The position numbers and the translations under genes were made by a program. Source: Sarea resinae (lineage: Eukaryota). From it: 20,000 nt of DNA. Where the stretch lies: positions 169,006 through 189,005 of the forward strand of contig JAPEUD010000051.1 of the NCBI GenBank assembly GCA_026026165.1, in the 5' to 3' direction. Position 1 is the first letter of the stretch; every line of letters begins with the position of its first letter. The notes beneath the pieces were generated by a model. It saw nothing but the letters and a program-made list of their open reading frames with translations, did no database searches and had not been told where the DNA came from. Shown piece by piece: positions 1 through 19,958 of this stretch.

Positions 1-68
1 CCGCGGCCATCACTTCTGTCGTTATCAGCGTCAACTCCGCACGGTGGTTCTCAGTTCACAGAGTCGCC

Positions 69-1585
69 ATGACGGCTCAACTTCCGCCAAATCTTCTGGC
101 CTTGTTCGCTCCAAGACCAGCTCTTCGATACCTGCCACCGAGTGACCATGCTCCTGAGGAGCGCAAAACAGCTCCTATCTCTGGGCTAGCCCAGTATCTG
201 GACAAACTCAACGAACCCGATGACTATACGCCTACCGAGAGCTGGCTACAGAGGAAAGACCGTTTGAAGCAAGAGAGAAAGGAAAAGCAGGAGAAGCAGG
301 TCACCGAAGGATTCGCAGAGTGTAAGTGTGGGCCACTGCTGACAACGTTTCGGTTGAATCGCTAATGTAATGAACTCAGATGACCCGACAAAGGATCCTC
401 AGGCTCGCGGAGATGCGTTCAAGACTCTGTTTGTTGCTCGATTGAGCTATGAGGCCAAGGAATCAGATCTCGAGCGCGAGTTCGGCAGATTTGGTCCCAT
501 CGAAAGAGTCAGTCTTGGAATACCCTCTGACGAATCATCATTTTCTAACCTCACGCTTGCACAGATCCGAATAGTTACTGATACCAACAGTGAAGGAGGG
601 AAGCCAAAGAAAAAGACTCACAGAGGCTATGCCTTTATTGTCTATGAGAGGGAGAAGGATATGAAGGGTATAGCAAACTCCATCCCCCCTTGTGGCTTGA
701 CCCAACACATGAGAGACTCAGTGGGCAAAGGTCTCCACATTCACAGAATGTCACCCTTTGTCAGGTACATGTTTATATGTTGGACTGGACTGACATCTGC
801 GCTTTGATATCTTTTTTCATTTAGCTGCTTACAAAGAAACCGACGGTATCCGCATCAAAGACAAACGAGTATTAGTCGACGTTGAGCGTGGCCGTACTGT
901 CAAGGGCTGGAGGCCAAGGCGCTTTGGGGGCGGGTTGGGCGGACGCGGGTACACCAAGGCAGCCCCTCCCAGGCCAGCTGGACCAGGGGGTTTCGGCCCA
1001 CCAGCAGGGCCCGGCGGCTTCAGAGGCGGCGGATTCCGTGGCGGCTTTGGTGGCCGAGGCGGCTTCCGCGGTGGTTTTGGTGGCGATCGAGGCGACCGTG
1101 GTCCTGGGGGCCGAGGAGGTATTGGGTATCAGGGAGGTGGGTTTGGTGGGCGTGGCGGCTATGGCGGACAATCAAACGGTTTCGCTGGTGGGCAGCCACC
1201 TCCAAACGCTCCTTCAGGACCTGGGGGTGGGAGAGGGCCTGGTGGGTATGGCCGAGGGTCCGATAGTCCGGCTCCCAGCACAAATGGTGGGTACGGTGAG
1301 CGTGGCGGTCGCCCTTATGAAGATAGGCCCCCTTATCGAGACAGAGGCGATAGAGGTGATAGAAGTGATAGGGGATATGGAGGCCGTGGCAGTGGCAGCA
1401 ACCGAGAGCCGGTAAGATCGCGAGATGGAGGAGGGTACAGAGACCGAGATCGCGACGGTGGCCGTGATGGTGGCCGTGATGGTGGCTATGGCAGTCGACC
1501 AAGAGACGACGATTATCCCCCCAGCAGGAAGAGGTATCACGACAACGATGGATATGACGACCCTCGAAGCAAACGAAGATATTAG
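69..1585 (+). CDS. SNP1: U1 small nuclear ribonucleoprotein 70 kDa (U1-70K), 4 exons: 69-321, 380-507, 565-667, 825-1585; ~414 aa
   Basis: N-terminus [20 protein letters not shown] with [10 protein letters not shown] (RNP2) and RGYAFIVY (RNP1), followed by [40 protein letters not shown], all diagnostic of U1-70K/SNRNP70. Introns 322-379 (GTAAGT..GCTAAT..CAG), 508-564 (GTCAGT..CTAAC..CAG) and 668-824 (GTATAG..CTGAC..TAG) give a continuous 1245-nt frame ending KRRY-TAG. RGG- and RD-rich C-terminal tail. Confidence 0.96.
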
Positions 1586-1651
1586 TATCAACCTGGTTCC
1601 GGTTTGTTAAACGACTATCTCATCTTTCAGCCTCCATTCTCTCTCAATTAT

Positions 1652-2070
1652 CGGGTAAGCCGAAGGGAATCTACGCATCCGCCTCTTTTCAGCCGACGGA
1701 CATCCTCAGAACGCGCTCTACGAGCTTCAAAGGTAGTCAAGCTCTCATCGGAGACACAGTCACCCCAAGGGCACTCGGATTCAGAAGTCGTCAATATTTG
1801 CTTATCGGCTACGCTTCCCTCGGTTGGTAGGGGTTAAGGATCAATGGTTTGTGAGGCGGTCATGTTTCGTTCCGAAGGATCTGATGTCCTTTGTTTTTTC
1901 GTGCTTCGGGTAGGTATCATTAAGGGTTAAAAGTGTAAAACATGGATGGTTCAGGTAAGGTCTTTGAGGTAAGACCGTCTAGTATCCTAGGCATCTGACT
2001 TGATGATCTTGTTTATCGTGTTACGTCTCGCACTGTACTCTGATCTGTATGAGGGGGTCCCATGGTAAGC
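1652..2070 (+). promoter_or_regulatory. Cluster of consensus 5' splice-site-like (U1 snRNA-complementary) motifs in the U1-70K 3' flank/UTR
   Basis: CGG|GTAAGC (GT at 1655), CAG|GTAAGG (1955), GAG|GTAAGA (1969), ATG|GTAAGC (2065), plus weaker GTAGTC (1733), GTAGGG (1827), GTGAGG (1851), GTAGGT (1910), GTATCA (1914), GTATGA (2047). The motifs are seen directly; a regulatory function is inferred. Confidence 0.55.
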
Positions 2071-2185
2071 AGCAAGGCATGGACAAGGATACTTTTATGC
2101 AACTCTATTGGGTCATGGCGTCGTTACTATGTACAATATCTTTCCCGGAAATTTCCTGGACTCCTCGGTAGACCTTTTCAACTAG

Positions 2186-3107
2186 TTATTCCTCCATCGC
2201 GTCAACTTCTTTGACCTCGTTCGTCGCAGCACTCCAATATCTGTGAGCTTATTAGCATGCAGATACAATCTTTTTGGGGGGGCGCATGGGATGCTTACGC
2301 CTTGATCTGGACCCTAAACTCGGCGGTCGCAACACCGAATAGCTTCAGAAGCGCTGTTTGATGACTATTCAGTACACTACCTTCTTTGCAGACGGTGTAT
2401 GGTTGATCCAGCGTAACCTTGCCCTTGACTAGGCTCGTTGGCATTCCCATTTTCCGTACGGTCTGCTCCAAAGAATGGGCCATTGGGACATCTTCTTCCG
2501 CGGGAATCTCACCACCCTGCGAGTACACCGTCCCTGCCGGAACGGTGAAGTCACGAGTTGCGTGAACACCGGCACGGGCAAAGTCTGTCTGAGCATATGT
2601 AGAGAAGTATGAAATGATGTCGTCGGTAGGTCGAGATGTGAAGAGGAGGCCCACATTGCCGACCAAGAACTATAGCAGAAATCAATAACATGTTGAGACA
2701 CGGCCACTTGAAGAAGATGGACGTACCTTGGAGAGCTTGCTGAGATTGGGCTCATATTCGTCCTCGACTGTGGTTCCCAGCGCCTTTGCCATGACTTTCG
2801 TCTTGCCAAAGAATAATCTACCCACGGGCATTCATGTTAGCACGACGGCCGATGGCATCCCCGATAGACCATCTACTGATCTCATAGGCGGGCAGAAGGT
2901 GAGGCAATAGACTGACCTGCTATCTGAGAACTCGGTCCTTACATCCTTCAGGTAGGTGTTCCGCATATTCTCGACGGAAAAGACGAAGCAGTACTGGTAC
3001 TTGTCCACACATTCTCGGACCTGCTTGAAGAGTTTCTGCGACAATTCCTTTCCCTTCTTCTCTACCTTGGACAGGTGAACGACCTTGGCGCGCTTCGACT
3101 TCGGCAT
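2186..3107 (-). CDS. MRT4: mRNA turnover protein 4 / ribosome assembly factor Mrt4 (uL10/P0 paralog), 4 exons: 3107-2917, 2817-2727, 2669-2299, 2240-2186; ~235 aa
   Basis: [87 protein letters not shown]. Introns 2818-2916, 2670-2726 and 2241-2298 are GT-AG with correct phases; total 708 nt. Confidence 0.95.
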
Positions 3108-3594
3108 GGTGAGAAGGGATTCAGATCTGCTATCGATAAGAGTGGCCGGCTTTGATAGTATCGCGATGCGATGCGATGCGATGTAGAGAATCGATTTGTG
3201 CCGTTTCGAAAATATGTCAAAAATACTATCGACATCGGCATCGGAGGAAGTTTTACGCGAGACTGCGGAGAATGGCCCGGCAAGGCACGACAAGATAGCC
3301 GATCCCAACCTTCAGACCGTGCGAGATGCTTCATGCTACCAAGGGCAGTCAGTGTTCCAAGTACTGATGGTGAGATACCGATCCAATTGGTCTTGCGCAT
3401 CATGTTATTAGTCCCGAACTGAACTCGAAGATGCCAATGAACCCAACGACCGTTCCGACTCGGTCAGATCGCTACGTCGAAGCTTGATCATGCGGCAGCG
3501 CAGACGACGATAATCGACTCTGTAAATTACGGATACTCTTTATATAAGAGGTCGTTGCTCCTAGAGCACGGCGCTTCGACTCAGGATACTCGAA
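3108..3594. promoter_or_regulatory. Divergent (head-to-head) promoter region shared by MRT4 and MDM10; TATA-like TATATAA at 3541-3547
   Basis: 487 bp between oppositely oriented start codons. TATATAA lies ~50 nt upstream of the MDM10 ATG, CCAAT motifs are present, and (GCGAT)4 is at 3163-3182. Confidence 0.55.
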
Positions 3595-5548: not shown

Positions 5549-8500
5549 CTAGGCACTGCCGGTGAGGACCGGATTATGCGCACCCAGAAGAGTCTTACCC
5601 GACGAAGGGCCCGTTGGAGCTCCGTCGAGACCAGAGTCAATTGTACCATCAAGACCAGATGTGCCAGCGTGAGCGCCAGTCGTGTCGGCATTAGCGCCAG
5701 TCGCGTTTTTCAGAGAATAGTCCCCTTTCCCTGAGCTTCCAAAGGCCTGATCCACTTGATTGGTGAAACCAGCTGAGCCGTTGGTTGCCCCATAACCACC
5801 ATTCGCAGCACTGGTGCTACCATTGGTGACCCCATGACGAGACTTGCGAGAGATAGGAGAAACCTTCGGAACACCCGTGGACTCTTTAGCGGACCCGATC
5901 GAGAATACGGGTGACTCCCATTTGTTTCCTTTGGCAGCCAATTCTTTGTATTCGGTGGCCTTAGTGGATATCCCACCCGGAAGCTTGATGTCCTTGAAAA
6001 TAGAGTCATGTTGAGTTACAGCAACGTTGACTTTCTTGTCCTGGGCCACTTCTTGGCCCTTTTGCTTTCCTTCCATCACCTTCTTTTGAGCGGCTGATGC
6101 GTAACGAGAATAGATGTTCGGAGCATTTTCGGGATCGTTCTGAACCTCTTTTCCAGCACGTTCAGCCTCCTTATGGATCTCATATGCCAGAGCATCAAGC
6201 TGGTGAACTTGGTCCCGGATCTGCTTTTCGAGAACCTTTTGAATAGCAGGACGAATAACCTTGAAAAGCAAGGGCTTGAAGACAGAAAACAGAAGCTTGT
6301 GCTTAGACTGCTTCAGCTTGATGTTGAGATGCTTGACATCGACGTCCACTTTCTCAATCTTGAAAAAGTGTTGCGTATCGGTTTTGTCGGCAGTCGCGAG
6401 CTTAACCTTGAAGCTGAAACCTTGGCCACCCATGAAAATATCGGCAACGCCCTTGTCCTTGATAGAGGGGAACCCAGTCTTCTTGTTTACGTAGTAACTC
6501 ACATCTATATTCCAATTAGCTTTCGCCATAAAGCCTTATCGTAAAGGCATATTTACCTTTCAAGTCCATCTGGATGCCTGAAACAGAAAGCATGACCTTG
6601 TTGTTATTCTTGTTGCTGATGTGCTTGCGACCCCATCGGAAGTAATTGTCGCTCCCGAGCTCGAAGACGTTCGGTGCCAGATTATCGCTCTCAATCACAA
6701 GGTTCTCTACGATAGCGTCCATGGTAGGATCGCTGTACTCAATTCGGGGAATTGGCACATATCGAACACTCTCGAAGATCCCAGGGAGGATCACACCGGT
6801 AAGGTCCTTGATAAGATGCTTCTTGAAAGTCGGCTTACCATTCTCGTCATTACCAAGATCTGTGAAAAGCTTCTGCACAGCCTGACCAAACCGCTTATTC
6901 TGAGGATCAGCGTCAAATTGGTTGCCAAAATACTTGATCTCATCAATGACGTGATCGGTGTGAGCACGATAGCGGTCACGAAGAAGGTAGTTTCCGCGGT
7001 CGTAGAGTTTGTTATACTCTTCTGTAGCAGCATCCTCCAGAATGAAGCCCTGCTCTTTCAGACACTTGCGGATGTACGTGTCGACCTGCTTGAACCAATT
7101 TTTCAAATCCGGATCTCTGTCGGCATCGCGGTAAATAGTATTCACGGAATCAAAAAGATCGTCCAGAGACGTGCTATTGGCAAAGCGCTCGATCAGAGTC
7201 TTCGAAGAGGTTAGCAGAGTCTTTGTCGGCTGAAAAGCGAACTACATACCCGAAGGTCGGCTTCTGCAATACGAAGACTATCATCGCTATGCGCACCATC
7301 AACAGAACCCGCGCCTTGACGAGCGATGTTCTTGCTGTGTCCGCCATATGTCTCGGCCAGGTTCAACAAAGTCTCAATCGCATTGTAGTCTGTTCAGGAT
7401 ACCATAGTCAGTTTCCTATTTTGCTCGCAGGAGGGTATTACACTGACAGTCTGGATGGCCTTGAATCTCGACAATCATCTTCTTCAAGCGCCAGATAGTC
7501 TGGTCCCGACGCTCTTGCGGCATTTTGTCCGACAGGTACTCTTTGGCCTGACCAGTAGTGTTTCGAGCGCGGTCTTTCGTCTCATCTGGCACGTTCTCGG
7601 AAGCCTGGCCGCGCAACGTCTGAGCACCAGCCTTGGCCCCAGATTTGGCGTCCAGTCCAGAGGATGACCCCTGCTGCTGATCCCTTGCAGCGAGGTCGGC
7701 CGCATCGGCAGGGTCTCTGGAGCCAGTAGGGTGAGCTGATTGGGTCGCATTACCTGCGGCATTCTGCAGGTCTTGTCCTGAGACAGGCTTTTGCTTGTCC
7801 TTTTGACTCTTTATCTGGCTCTTGATATTGCCCGTGGACAAATCAGGAACATCATGCCAAGTATTGTCCTCAGCAGGCTTATCAATCTGGGACAGCTGCT
7901 CCTCAGAAGGGTTGACCTTGTTCGCGACATTCTGGGCAGCGTCACCAGCAATGTCGCGAAGGAGTACGGTCACATCGCTAACTACAAATAGGTCAGTAGG
8001 CATTGTAAACATAAGCAGTTAAAAGACTCACGAAGCTTTCTGAATTGGCCATTGGAGATGATCAATGTTCCAAGAGTCCTGAGACCTTCTAAGGCCTTGT
8101 TGCCATGTTGACGAGCCGTATCTTTATCGATTGGAGCTCCCGGTTTTTGCGCATCACCACCAGTAACTTGACTGGTCTGCCAGACGAAGTCTTGCAACAG
8201 ATTGCCGTCATTCTTTGTCAAGACAAGGTACTTTGCTTGTTCGATCACGTTACGAAGATCGGCAACTAGATCGCGACCCTCTTCAGAGAGCTTCTTGGAA
8301 GGGCTTGTCAAGGCTTTTGACGCAAGGGCGGTGTTAAGAGCAACATCGATTTGTTGATTCTGTGCAGACGGTGTTAGAAGAATGAAGGCGGCAAGAACGC
8401 GCGAGAAAACTTACGGATGGAACCTTTCCATTGGCAAAGGCTGCGATGAGAAAGTCAACATCAGTATCAAGCTCGTTATAAAGTCTAGGCGCGAGAGCCA

Positions 8501-9079: not shown

Positions 9080-10615
9080 GGTACCTACCCTTACCTACCT
9101 TACCTTGCCTGTCTACCTCCTACCTCCCTGACCTTGAAACTACCCACTGCCCTGTGTACTGTGATCTACGAGAATTACGTATGGCTTGGTTGGCCATTAG
9201 CTTGCGAATCGATGTATATTGCAGTCCTTCTCATCCTAAAGGAGGACCCATCCATCTACTAAAGCCATCCTACCTCACTAGCCCTGCTTGACGCTTGACG
9301 TGGGAGGAATTTGATGCATACCTTACCGTGCCCAGCACCTTCCCAGGATCATCATTCTGTTGCTTGGGCGCTACCTAGGTAGGTCGATAGCAAGACGGGC
9401 CTAATTGCCCAGTTTGCGAAACTTGGTGCTCGCATCGAACAATGAATGACGTTGACGAAGGTGACGTTCAGACGTCGTTTCTCGTTTCCCAACAGCGCCG
9501 GCCCAGAACGCAAGAATCAGCGCGGGCTGGGGAAGTCGACTAGGGACACGTATTCGGTTAAGCGTCGTGGTGATGATCCTCGATCAGCGTCGATGATTGG
9601 CGATCGGCAAGATGCCGATTCGAATCAAGAGCCATATTAGGGGCAATTTCTGGTCGAAGTGGCAGGGGCCAGTTCAGGCAATCCACAAACCCCATATACA
9701 TGTCCCATACTGACTTCCACACATAGTAGGGTACCTAGATCGTAGTATACCTCGTAGTGCGGCTTCGATCCCTGATCTCTTTCGTCGCGTAAAATCTTGG
9801 TTTGAGCCAACCCCCTCAAGTAGCCAAAGTCGTTCAAGCGGCCGGCATAGTGGGATGATCGAGGCCATTTCTTCTCCACGACGGTACGGAACGAGATGGC
9901 GAGACGTCAAGTACATATTAAGTACAGGCTTCGTCAAAGCACCTTATTTAAGTGATCTGCACAAGTGCCGTAGCAGTGACGATAGTATCGTATTTAAAGG
10001 CTCGGACCTTTGACCCGCCTCAAATCAAATCAGTGTGAGTACCTACCTACCTACATGGCCTGGGCTACCTTGGGCACCTGAGGTTGGAGGCCGATAGACA
10101 ACTTCATACTTTTAGTATCGCAGCGCAGTCCCTATCACAAGCCAGCCATGTAGGTAGGTAAGGTACCTTAGGTAGTAGGCCTAGAGGCTGCTGGCTGCGT
10201 CGGATACTTCCAGGAAACTCTCTGTCATTGATTGGTTCTGTCTGTGGCGGTGGCTCATTTTCTTATTGAATTCTGCATCTGCACTTTCAGAGCAACAGTA
10301 GTACAAAAAGTACTTCCCCAGCATTGTCAAAGACGCCACGTCTCAGTCCATGAAACTTGGGCAAGCAAATTGCGTTAGTGATTGTGTCAAAATTCTGTCG
10401 CACGTGTCGGTGAATTAGGTACGCCCGTACCTTAGTCACTGTAACCTTCACTCTAGACCCGGGACAGCCTCAGGGCAATCACCTCAATCATTTCAAGGGA
10501 ACTTCAACCGCCACCACTGAGGATTTGCCTGTTGGGATGGTCATAGCCCGAGGGTAATTCCAACTTCCATTCCAAGGATTCTGACACCTTGAACGGGATG
10601 ATTAGGTACCTAAGT
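9080..10615. repeat. Dispersed (TACC)n/(GGTA)n simple repeats and 12-bp palindromes in the long divergent intergenic region
   Basis: tacctacccttacctaccttacc (~9082-9105), CTACCTAGGTAG (9371-9382), tacctacctacctac (~10040-10054), gtaggtaggtaaggtaccttaggtag (10150-10175), TTAGGTACCTAA (10602-10613). Confidence 0.65.
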
Positions 10616-18680: not shown

Positions 18681-18844
18681 ATATTTAGCATGCCTACAGC
18701 AAGTCCTAGAACTCCTTAAAATAGTTGAGTCACGTGATTCTAGTCTTACACTGTCTATAAGTAGCTATAAATGTATTAAATAGACCACTAGATTAAATAC
18801 ATTACAGCTATTATATCTGCAATAGCTATTAGCTAATTTGCTAA

Positions 18845-19427
18845 TTAGTAGTGTTATCTATATATATAGTAATTATTATATTCTCTCTAATATAGATAGA
18901 GCTATCTGTTAGAATTGTTTTAAATTATATTTTTATAAGTAAAATCTTTAGGTAAATTTCCTATTATCTAGCAGCTTGTTTTAAGCTATATCAAGCTTTA
19001 TTTTAAAGATAAGACTTTGCTTTTTTTCTTCTATAAAACTCTCTAGCTGCTCTATATAGATAGGATTATCTAGATTAGCATTAGAAAATACAGAAGCTAT
19101 ATCCTACTAATATATTTCTAGATCTAGTTTAGTAGCTATAACTAGGAGTAGTTTTTATAGCTATAGGATTGCTAGTGTATATAAAGGTCTCTATATAGTT
19201 AACCTCTTACTTTTATAAGAAGCCTCTAGTAACCTACCTAGATTTTCTTTTATTAATTGTATTATTAAGGTTTAGCTTTGTTTTATAAACCTACTTGCTA
19301 TTAATTGTATTAGTATTATTAGGTCTAGGCACTAGCTTTAGAACTCCTAGCTCTTTTAGCTTAGTAAGCTCTTTCTACATTGATTTTAGCCACTCCTCTT
19401 TGTATAATAACTCTAGAGCTTCTCTAT
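18845..19427 (-). mobile_element. RIP-degenerated Ty1/copia reverse transcriptase fragment
   Basis: Minus-strand translation (with stops and frameshifts): REALELLYKEEWLKSM*KELTKLKELGVLKLVPRPNNTNTINSK*VYKTK..KRKSR*VTRGFL*K*EVNYIETF..LLLVIATKLDLEIY**DIASVFSNANLDNPIYIEQLESF..SLKQAAR**..IIITIYIDN. This matches the copia RT consensus (KWVFK, KARLVARGF, DY.ETF, DV..AFLN, LKQA.R.W, YVDD; YIDN at 18864-18853). Confidence 0.9.
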
Positions 19428-19958
19428 TGTTAGAATTATAACCTTAATTCTAGTCACTCTTAAGTATTAAGACTGTTATAGAATGTTATATAATAGTATA
19501 GATATATCTAGAAGCTTCTACAGACCTATAGAAGCTAATAGAACTCTATAGAACCTTATAGAAGATTCTAGAAGATTCTATAGCTATGCTGACTAAGCAT
19601 CACTACATGCTGACTAAGCATCTAGAACCTTCTAGAACTTTCTAGAATGTTCTAGAACTGTCTAGAAGTCTATAGAATCTCTTAGATATCTATAGAACTC
19701 TATAACATAAGGGTTACACAACTATCTCCTGACTTTCTTACAAAGCCTATGTCATTGTCAGCTTATTGCTTACAAATCACTCATGTAATTAGTCATCACT
19801 AGAAGTTTCTAGTAAGTTAGTTAAGTCTATATATTAACTGCCTTACACCTCTATAGCTAGAATCTCTAAGTTTAAAATACACAATCATTCTATACTATAC
19901 TTCTTTAGCACCTTCCTCTACTTATATCTTTATACTACCTTCTAACAGGTTATGAGCC
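19428..19958 (+). mobile_element. 5' LTR (19428-19947, interrupted) and primer-binding site (19948-19958) of a second copia-type element running off the window edge
   Basis: TGTTAGAA (19428-19435) and TTCTAACA (19940-19947) form a perfect 8-bp inverted terminus. It is immediately followed by GGTTATGAGCC, which resembles the GGTTATGGGCCC-type PBS of copia elements primed by an internal tRNA-iMet segment. The right end is well supported; the left boundary is inferred. Confidence 0.7.
19474..19707. mobile_element. 234-bp solo LTR-like element (gypsy-type termini) nested in the copia LTR
   Basis: TGTTATAGA (19474-19482) and TCTATAACA (19699-19707) form a 9-bp inverted repeat with TG..CA ends. 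Internally there are ~10-bp TTCTAGAA-type tandem repeats and a 16-bp direct repeat ATGCTGACTAAGCATC. No clean target-site duplication. Confidence 0.6.

Follow-up and report, generated by a model that had tools for sequence, protein, structure and literature searches.

Does the messenger RNA (mRNA) of a fungal U1-70K gene carry, behind its stop codon, a device that reads how much assembled U1 small nuclear ribonucleoprotein (snRNP) is present? The question is raised by a 20,000-nt stretch of Sarea resinae DNA (contig JAPEUD010000051.1, positions 169,006 to 189,005; this whole stretch is called the window below), in which the gene for the U1 snRNP 70 kDa protein, U1-70K, is followed by a cluster of GGTAAG motifs resembling 5′ splice sites. 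U1 snRNP is the most abundant spliceosomal particle, and to our knowledge the setting of its level is known only from vertebrates (via U1A and U1-70K/U1C) and, in the case of the minor spliceosome, via the U11 snRNP splicing enhancer (USSE). A reading of the window from its letters alone (the sequence-only reading) had proposed that the motifs let U1-70K mRNA sense U1 snRNP. Judged from sequence, the 3′ flank of U1-70K carries a conserved sense-strand array with predicted complementarity to the 5′ end of U1 small nuclear RNA (snRNA), and in a subset of loci the last exon does so as well. The array is specific to one strand and one gene, keeps its layout and number of sites in Pezizomycotina-type loci, is independent of the neighboring gene MRT4, and lies in transcribed sequence.

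Between the stop codons of U1-70K and the convergent MRT4 gene, the sense strand holds four GGTAAG (1654, 1954, 1968, and 2064), and a fifth stands in the last exon of U1-70K at 1411; the GT positions listed earlier (1655, 1955, 1969, and 2065), and that at 1412 in the last exon, are all found on the plus strand. The flank array spans 69–481 nt past the U1-70K stop, and none of its sites has an intronic position, all being downstream of the stop codon at 1583–1585. Weaker donor-like motifs accompany them, as had been noticed (GTAGGT at 1910, GTGAG at 1851; within 1652–2070, GTR occurs 16 times on the plus strand and 9 times on the minus strand). The plus strand of the 20-kb window contains 9 GGTAAG in total (the others at 6798, 10157, 11975, and 15600), not the 8 first counted by eye, and the minus strand contains 7. 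Dinucleotide shuffles gave 7.73 ± 2.77 GGTAAG on both strands together and reached 16 in 0 of 200 cases; the derived expectation of ~0.08 per 420 nt per strand agrees with the earlier estimate of ~0.1. Because 126 of 8048 strand-specific hexamers, mostly in repeats, have at least four copies in some 420-nt window, the window alone gives only about p = 0.016, which makes the cluster no more than moderately unusual. Elsewhere in the window, at least three GGTAAG cluster only in a microsatellite-like GGTAGG/GGTAAG run on the minus strand (9090–9330), which lies outside any 3′ flank and has an ATG (8643) ~450 nt downstream on that strand. The region 18700–19900 is repeat-rich, with CTAGAA, TCTAGA, TCTATA, and AGCTAT reaching 6–9 copies per 420 nt.

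Orthologous loci carry the finding. Metagenome contigs were scanned with an alignment of fungal U1-70K proteins, which gave 576 pattern matches and 416 relatives, and the best 80 of the 416 relatives yielded 79 loci (numbered with the prefix L). Of these, 43 have a last-exon frame closing with the ...RRY stop of the Pezizomycotina type and 29 belong to other types; 7 further RRY-type loci that run off the contig were dropped (L002, L006, L014, L031, L033, L034, and L042). After removal of six near-duplicates (L012, L015, L017, L021, L039, and L043), 37 flanks of at most 600 nt each remained, amounting to 20,480 nt. Among the other-type loci, 22 of the 29 were counted; those dropped were five without a stop in the locus, one duplicate, and one with a 9-nt flank. 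By nearest named protein, which is a rough assignment, the array-positive loci resemble Lecanoromycetes, Leotiomycetes, Dothideomycetes, Sordariomycetes, and Geoglossomycetes. Over its last exon, L058 shares 91% identity with the Podospora protein.

The sense strand of the 37 flanks contains 101 copies of GGTAAG (4.93 per kb) and the antisense strand contains 4 (0.20 per kb), compared with 18 and 11 copies (0.26 and 0.16 per kb) on the two strands of a further 69 kb in these loci. The expectation was about 4.3 copies (Poisson p about 1e-98), the sense-strand enrichment is about 25-fold, and GGTAAG ranks first among all hexamers in the sense flanks. At least one copy is present in 34 of 37 flanks and at least two in 28 of 37. 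Only 2 of the 37 share a 16-mer with the window flank, so the motif has been kept and the surrounding sequence has not. When 284 kb were searched on both strands for at least three GGTAAG per 600 nt per strand, 33 clusters were obtained, 30 of them in U1-70K 3′ flanks. The 22 outgroup loci, which are not of the Pezizomycotina type, hold 3 GGTAAG in 9,282 nt, with almost none downstream of the RRM exon. No MRT4 is present for at least 2.3 kb downstream in L011, L018, L013, L024, L036, L037, L038, and L068, each of which keeps 2–5 sites, so the array is not a by-product of the MRT4 3′ untranslated region (UTR). Thus, neither of two objections that the sequence-only reading had raised against itself, missing enrichment in orthologous flanks and constraint from the MRT4 3′ UTR, was borne out. 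The part of its sensor proposal that stands is the array: on sequence comparison, orthologue enrichment and flank specificity give good support to an array of U1-type motifs that is selected and strand-specific, and sensing and its route stay at the level of interpretation.

The layout is conserved together with the motif. An array typically has 2–6 sites, the commonest form being GGTAAG followed by any base but T; a near-consensus donor of the form GGTRRGTATG also belongs to it. The first site, often RGGGTAAGS, lies at +40 to +140 in 29 of 36 site-bearing flanks (median +84.5) and at least 63 nt past the stop in 34 of 36. A tandem pair of sites 8–14 nt apart (10 nt being the commonest spacing) occurs in 20 of 38 flanks including that of the window, in several classes by nearest named protein. 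In the window and seven loci, a near-consensus donor, GGTAAGTATG, GGTGAGTATGTAATTAA, or GGTAGGTATG, usually preceded by a pyrimidine tract, stands 41–63 nt upstream of the pair; the second class of site in the window corresponds to a site that reads GGTAAGTATG or GGTGAGTATGTAATTAA in relatives, near the full donor consensus. When the window is aligned with L001 and L007, the invariant blocks are exactly the first site, the donor, the pair, a CATCTRAC block, and an MRT4-adjacent block. Donor-like variants show the same strand bias, with 13 sense and 0 antisense copies of GT[AG][AG]GTATG and 58 sense and 8 antisense copies of GGTRRGT. Across 105 GGTAAG, position −2 is G in 50, A in 26, T in 24, and C in 5, and position +6 is G in 35, A in 31, C in 29, and T in 10. 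By hand tally, G at −1 precedes about 101 of 116 flank GTAAG versus 54 of 172 elsewhere in the loci. Because the sense strand is enriched 25-fold, the sites are restricted to the flanks, the layout is kept in flanks that do not align, and positions −1 and −2 show these preferences, we conclude that U1-complementary motifs form a selected element at the RNA level here.

Two further observations concern the make-up of individual arrays. A donor-like GGTGGGTAT (GGTGGGTGT in L007), often after TTGT, is found at +27 to +77 past the stop in L003, L004, L007, L019, L058, L067, and L075; the window has no exact copy. In L010 (2369–2650), the array is enlarged by tandem duplication of ~40–55-nt units with one GGTAAG each, to six sites in total.

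The site within the last exon is written in codons. The exact CCG GTA AGR is present in 13 of 20 EPVR-bearing sequences (the window and 12 loci); among these 13, neighboring conserved residues differ in codon, and the other 7 sequences use none of these P/V codons. This argument is partly circular because the 13 were chosen by the motif. The C-terminal half of U1-70K is of low complexity except for two strongly conserved peptides, one of 10 letters and one comprising the C-terminal 19 letters (window 1390–1582 and the loci).

Table 1. Features of the U1-70K/MRT4 region of the window (positions are those of the window)
Feature	Position	Strand	Description
U1-70K gene	69..1585	+	exons 69-321, 380-507, 565-667, 825-1585; stop TAG 1583-1585 (open reading frames, sequence)
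U1-70K intron 3	668..824	+	weak donor GTATAG, without G at +5
In-exon site	1411..1416	+	GGTAAG from codons CCG GTA AGA of the conserved peptide EPVR
RNA contig span	1519..2322	unassigned	continuous 1519-2240, then joins 2240 to 2299
First 3′-flank site	1654..1659	+	cgg/GTAAGC, 69 nt past stop; invariant GGGTAAGC block in the alignment of the window, L001, and L007
CTGAT and pyrimidine-rich tract	1881..1908	+	with TAG 1911-1913 resembles a 3′ splice site (sequence)
Second class of site	1909..1918	+	GGTAGGTATC; aligned block
Tandem pair	1954..1973	+	cag/GTAAGG and gag/GTAAGA, spacing 14 nt
Branch-point-like CTGAC	1995..1999	+	22 nt past second tandem site
Fourth 3′-flank site	2064..2069	+	atg/GTAAGC; aligned GGTAAG in L007, lost in L001
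MRT4, convergent gene	start 3107 to stop 2186-2188	−	last intron 2241-2298

The identities of both genes of the pair are clear (Table 1). The U1-70K product matches Pfam U1snRNP70_N (E 2.9e-28) and RRM_1, and the named homologues of the window protein are U1 snRNP 70 kDa proteins; MRT4 matches Pfam Ribosomal_L10 and RL10P_insert as well as solved MRT4 chains (E 3e-49). The two stop codons are separated by 600 nt. The convergent pair is also present in L001, L004, L007, L009, L020, L058, and L075, and the pairing is common to Lecanoromycetes-like and Sordariomycetes-like loci. A 27-nt block at 2112–2138, located 48–74 nt downstream of the MRT4 stop on the minus strand, is invariant in the window, L001, and L007. 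On that strand it contains UGUACAUA, which we take to resemble a Puf-type UGUA motif. A comparison of 1400–2400 with Rfam returned no match at E up to 1.

What might such an array do behind this gene? We judge it rather probable that it is a U1 snRNP-binding platform that couples assembled U1 snRNP to U1-70K mRNA output in negative feedback. U1 snRNP would bind the array on the U1-70K transcript, and its binding would lower productive U1-70K mRNA; both steps are suggested by the identity of the gene together with two precedents, the vertebrate U1-70K gene and the USSE. Within this reading, the route given the most weight, though a little short of half, is U1-dependent non-productive splicing of the 3′ UTR, binding without splicing is a possible and somewhat less likely route, and the remainder is a mixture of the two.

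Through splicing in the 3′ UTR, an exon junction would come to lie more than 60 nt past the stop, and this would lead to nonsense-mediated decay (NMD); alternatively, exon definition would activate an upstream 3′ splice site, as in vertebrate U1-70K. This route is favored by the splicing-type signals at the tandem pair and by the distance of the first site from the stop in 34 of 36 flanks. CTRAC is located 10–50 nt past the pair in 8 of 19 cases, compared with 221 of 5603 control windows (3.9%, p = 3e-7), and together with the next YAG it defines intron-like units of 45–67 nt in L009, L011, L018, L044, L058, and L067. In the window, CTGAC at 1995–1999 has no YAG within 73 nt. The sequence-only reading had seen no obvious well-spaced branch point with a YAG partner for the donors at 1955–2065, which is largely correct for the window, the first YAG past CTGAC being 73 nt away. 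In Neurospora, Zhang and Sachs reportedly described in 2015 an autoregulation by NMD that depends on the exon junction complex and on a 3′ UTR intron more than about 50 nt past the stop. NMD triggered by introns near the stop codon has been reported in the same fungus (PMC7746235).

Binding without splicing would either block cleavage and polyadenylation or lead to nuclear retention and decay by the exosome. Four observations favor this second route: many sites lack a partner, T is scarce at +6, one site lies within the exon, and the RNA contigs are unspliced. Downstream CTRAY with YAG accompanies only 19 of 113 sites, compared with 590 of 7936 control positions (7.4%); the other 94 of 113 have no downstream partner, and early sites almost never have one. 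T at +6 is found in 10 of 105 sites, in comparison to 13 of 27 real donors of the post-GPIER intron in these genes (hand count; Fisher p = 2e-5), and its depletion is marginal relative to other GTAAG in the loci (33 of 172, p = 0.04) or to GGTAAG (p = 0.08). Motifs related to polyadenylation signals are uninformative, with 5 sense and 14 antisense copies of AATAAA and 115 and 99 copies, respectively, of TGTA.

RNA-derived contigs place the array in transcribed sequence. One sequencing run gave two contigs on window positions 1–3300, with cover absent at 1–1518, 2323–2940, and 2985–3300. The contig that spans the array comes from a wood-decay metatranscriptome (748 nt, depth 13) and from a relative that is about 98% identical; it differs from the window at 12 positions in 722 nt, none of them within a GGTAAG. 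Its only joint removes the MRT4 intron 2241–2298, and over 1519–2240 it contains no joint at any GGTAAG site, although contigs drop rare forms. Intronless cDNA-like contigs also keep their sites (five in L072 and two in L045); since introns are present in related loci, these contigs were taken as complementary DNA. Apart from a (CTA)n difference, the cDNA-like L008 runs colinearly with the genomic L023; a candidate 3′ UTR intron from ~70 nt, absent in L008 relative to L023, was rejected as this microsatellite difference.

A small hairpin lies directly past the second tandem site and is followed by CTTACTGAC (L009 4165–4210, L011 4173–4220, L018 4176–4222, L044 4198–4238, L020 4156–4202, and window 1964–2004). 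The hairpin is weak, with a consensus fold of −2.9 kcal/mol and compensatory changes in 3 of 12 pairs. CTTACTGAC is branch-point-like, and since its CTTAC is complementary to GTAAG, the second tandem site could be sequestered.

Several points weigh against the feedback platform or its splicing route. The scarcity of T at +6 fits a decoy, as far as sequence can tell, and not a site of maximal U1 affinity. For the splicing route in particular, most sites are without a downstream partner, as described above, and none of the four RNA-derived contigs has a joint at a site, with the proviso that NMD would remove spliced forms. The acceptor-like signal 0–90 nt upstream of the pair is weak, being present in 12 of 20 flanks versus 1210 of 3626 controls (33%, p = 0.013). 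The RNA contig between the stops may be MRT4 read-through or two merged convergent transcripts. The loci share ancestry, so their counts cannot be treated as independent. The negative sign of the regulation is assumed, and the canonical 5′ end of U1 snRNA in these fungi is a premise of the reading.

Among the rival explanations, the one that survives best, although improbable, is that U1 recruitment serves a positive purpose, either help in splicing intron 3 or telescripting, with no feedback or positive feedback. It draws on the long unspliced 3′ regions of the RNA-derived contigs and on intron 3 itself, which follows ...EREKDMK and whose weak donor is conserved in the window and 25 loci (GTATAG, GTACTG, GTAAAC, and similar); G at +5 is present in 1 of 26 intron 3 donors versus 24 of 27 donors of the preceding intron (hand count; Fisher p = 9e-11). 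However, the distance from intron 3 to the sites downstream of it reaches about 1.3 kb, an abundant core particle under positive feedback would be an unusual design, and the known circuits of snRNP proteins are negative (PMC3798272, PMC5473595). A second step sensitive to U1 may lie in intron 3. This intron is read through in several database proteins, and its position is the same as in the animal-like locus L056.

Ordinary 3′ UTR introns, constitutive or alternative, with several donors and without a sensing role, are a slightly less probable account. The branch-point-like motif with YAG past the pair in six loci (units of 45–67 nt) and near-consensus donors such as GGTAAGTATG are what such introns would leave, but this account has to contend with the 94 of 113 partnerless sites, with T at +6 in 10 of 105 sites as opposed to 13 of 27 real donors, and with the unspliced RNA-derived contigs, and it leaves unexplained why 4–6 donors are kept behind one gene. 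It is quite unlikely that GGUAAG serves another RNA-binding protein as its site, or that it is an oriented element in DNA (for instance a terminator or transcription-factor site), with no more than a resemblance to a 5′ splice site. The rarity of T at +6, a base favored by U1 pairing, would suit such a binder, whereas the location next to a gene for a U1 protein, the donor-like character of all accompanying variants (GGTRRGT 58 versus 8, GT[AG][AG]GTATG 13 versus 0), the fit of the −1 and −2 preferences to U1 pairing, and the branch-point-like motifs near the pair would not. A chance cluster or recent local duplication in the window genome, for which the 1.6% of window hexamers reaching four copies in some 420-nt window and the partial growth of the L010 array by duplication might speak, has a negligible probability and is rejected because the array recurs in 34 of 37 orthologous flanks that have diverged and surround it with other sequence.

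If the array is a U1 snRNP feedback platform, its implications extend beyond one gene. We lean slightly towards the view that filamentous ascomycetes have a U1 snRNP homeostat independent of the vertebrate one. In such a homeostat, the terminal exon of U1-70K mRNA would act as a decoy with several sites that stand in for the substrate of the particle, codon choice would place one of them in the coding sequence, and the near-consensus donor and tandem pair would gate 3′-end formation or 3′ UTR splicing. The element is compact, easily mutated, and conserved in loci that resemble at least four Pezizomycotina classes, which would make U1 homeostasis testable in genetically tractable fungi such as Neurospora, Aspergillus, and Podospora, and it could show whether U1 on a terminal exon represses 3′-end formation or export outside animals. 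The array would also explain why gene predictors stumble here, and it suggests that 3′ UTR motif arrays be sought behind other splicing-factor genes.

In the literature searched, which covered open-access papers and bioRxiv, no description of a 5′ splice-site array behind a fungal U1-70K gene came up, and the precedents named by the sequence-only reading omit the closest ones. In vertebrates, intron 7 of the U1-70K gene (SNRNP70) contains a regulatory cluster of cryptic 5′ splice sites (Rösel-Hillgärtner et al. 2013, PMC3798272), whose motifs are occupied additively by the intact, U1C-containing U1 snRNP and reduce the productive form of U1-70K mRNA. The cluster activates an alternative 3′ splice site just upstream and directs the mRNA to NMD (PMC3798272). 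The fungal array resembles this cluster in belonging to the same gene family, in its location in U1-70K pre-mRNA, and in having at least three 5′ splice-site motifs conserved among relatives. In contrast, the vertebrate cluster, as described, is intronic and creates a premature stop, whereas the fungal sites lie past the stop with one in the last exon; sequence homology between the two is not expected, and the upstream acceptor-like signal is weak in the fungi. In our data, the only other cluster of at least three copies in a U1-70K gene is in the animal-like locus (L056, L057), where a ~820-nt intron after ...EFEKEHDMH has GGTAAG at 2330, 2408, and 2433 and GGTAAGT at 2940; it may correspond to the known vertebrate intron 7 cluster.

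The USSE, located in U11-48K and in the 3′ UTR of U11/U12-65K, consists of tandem 5′ splice sites that are snRNP-bound and not spliced, and in the 65K 3′ UTR it governs which 3′ UTR isoform is made, which poly(A) site is used, and nuclear retention (PMC5473595). It shares with the fungal array the tandem 5′ splice-site motifs with short fixed spacing, the 3′ UTR location, and the mRNA of an snRNP-specific protein. Going by what is described of it, the USSE is built of U12-type sites for U11 and is ultraconserved in animals and plants, whereas the fungal GGTAAG motifs are of the U1/U2 type, conserve only motif identity and layout, and are more numerous.

Polyadenylation is inhibited when U1 snRNP occupies an unpaired 5′ splice site of a terminal exon, as in papillomavirus late 3′ UTRs and in U1 interference, a mechanism in which U1-70K contacts poly(A) polymerase. 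The likeness would lie in unspliced donor-like motifs of a terminal exon and in several weak sites acting together; that mechanism was shown outside fungi, and the fungal array is likened to it by its motifs alone. The U1A protein binds a 3′ UTR mimic of its own snRNA loop. It autoregulates through a polyadenylation-inhibition element (PMC3798272), and is thus a U1 snRNP protein that limits its own mRNA through the 3′ UTR, but the fungal motifs mimic the substrate of the whole particle and not U1 stem-loop I. Polyadenylated RNAs with an intact 5′ splice-site motif are kept back inside the nucleus and decayed by PAXT/MTREC and the exosome (PMC9074902, 10.1101/2024.07.23.604837, PMC11629677); this retention of mRNAs needs U1-70K, and MTREC, the counterpart complex of the pathway, exists in fission yeast (PMC9074902, PMC11629677). 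What the two would share is a 5′ splice-site motif that is left unspliced in mature mRNA and read via U1-70K as a retention and decay signal. As described, that pathway is a quality control of misprocessed RNA, whereas the fungal array would be a gene-specific feedback. In summary, the principle is already known from vertebrate U1-70K and the USSE, and the novelty lies in the position past the stop, the site number, the site in the exon, and the lineage. If the proposed feedback holds, the fungal array would be a clear instance of convergent evolution of splice-site decoys and, after vertebrate intron 7 and the U11 USSE, the third convergent case of an snRNP that counts itself via splice-site mimics.

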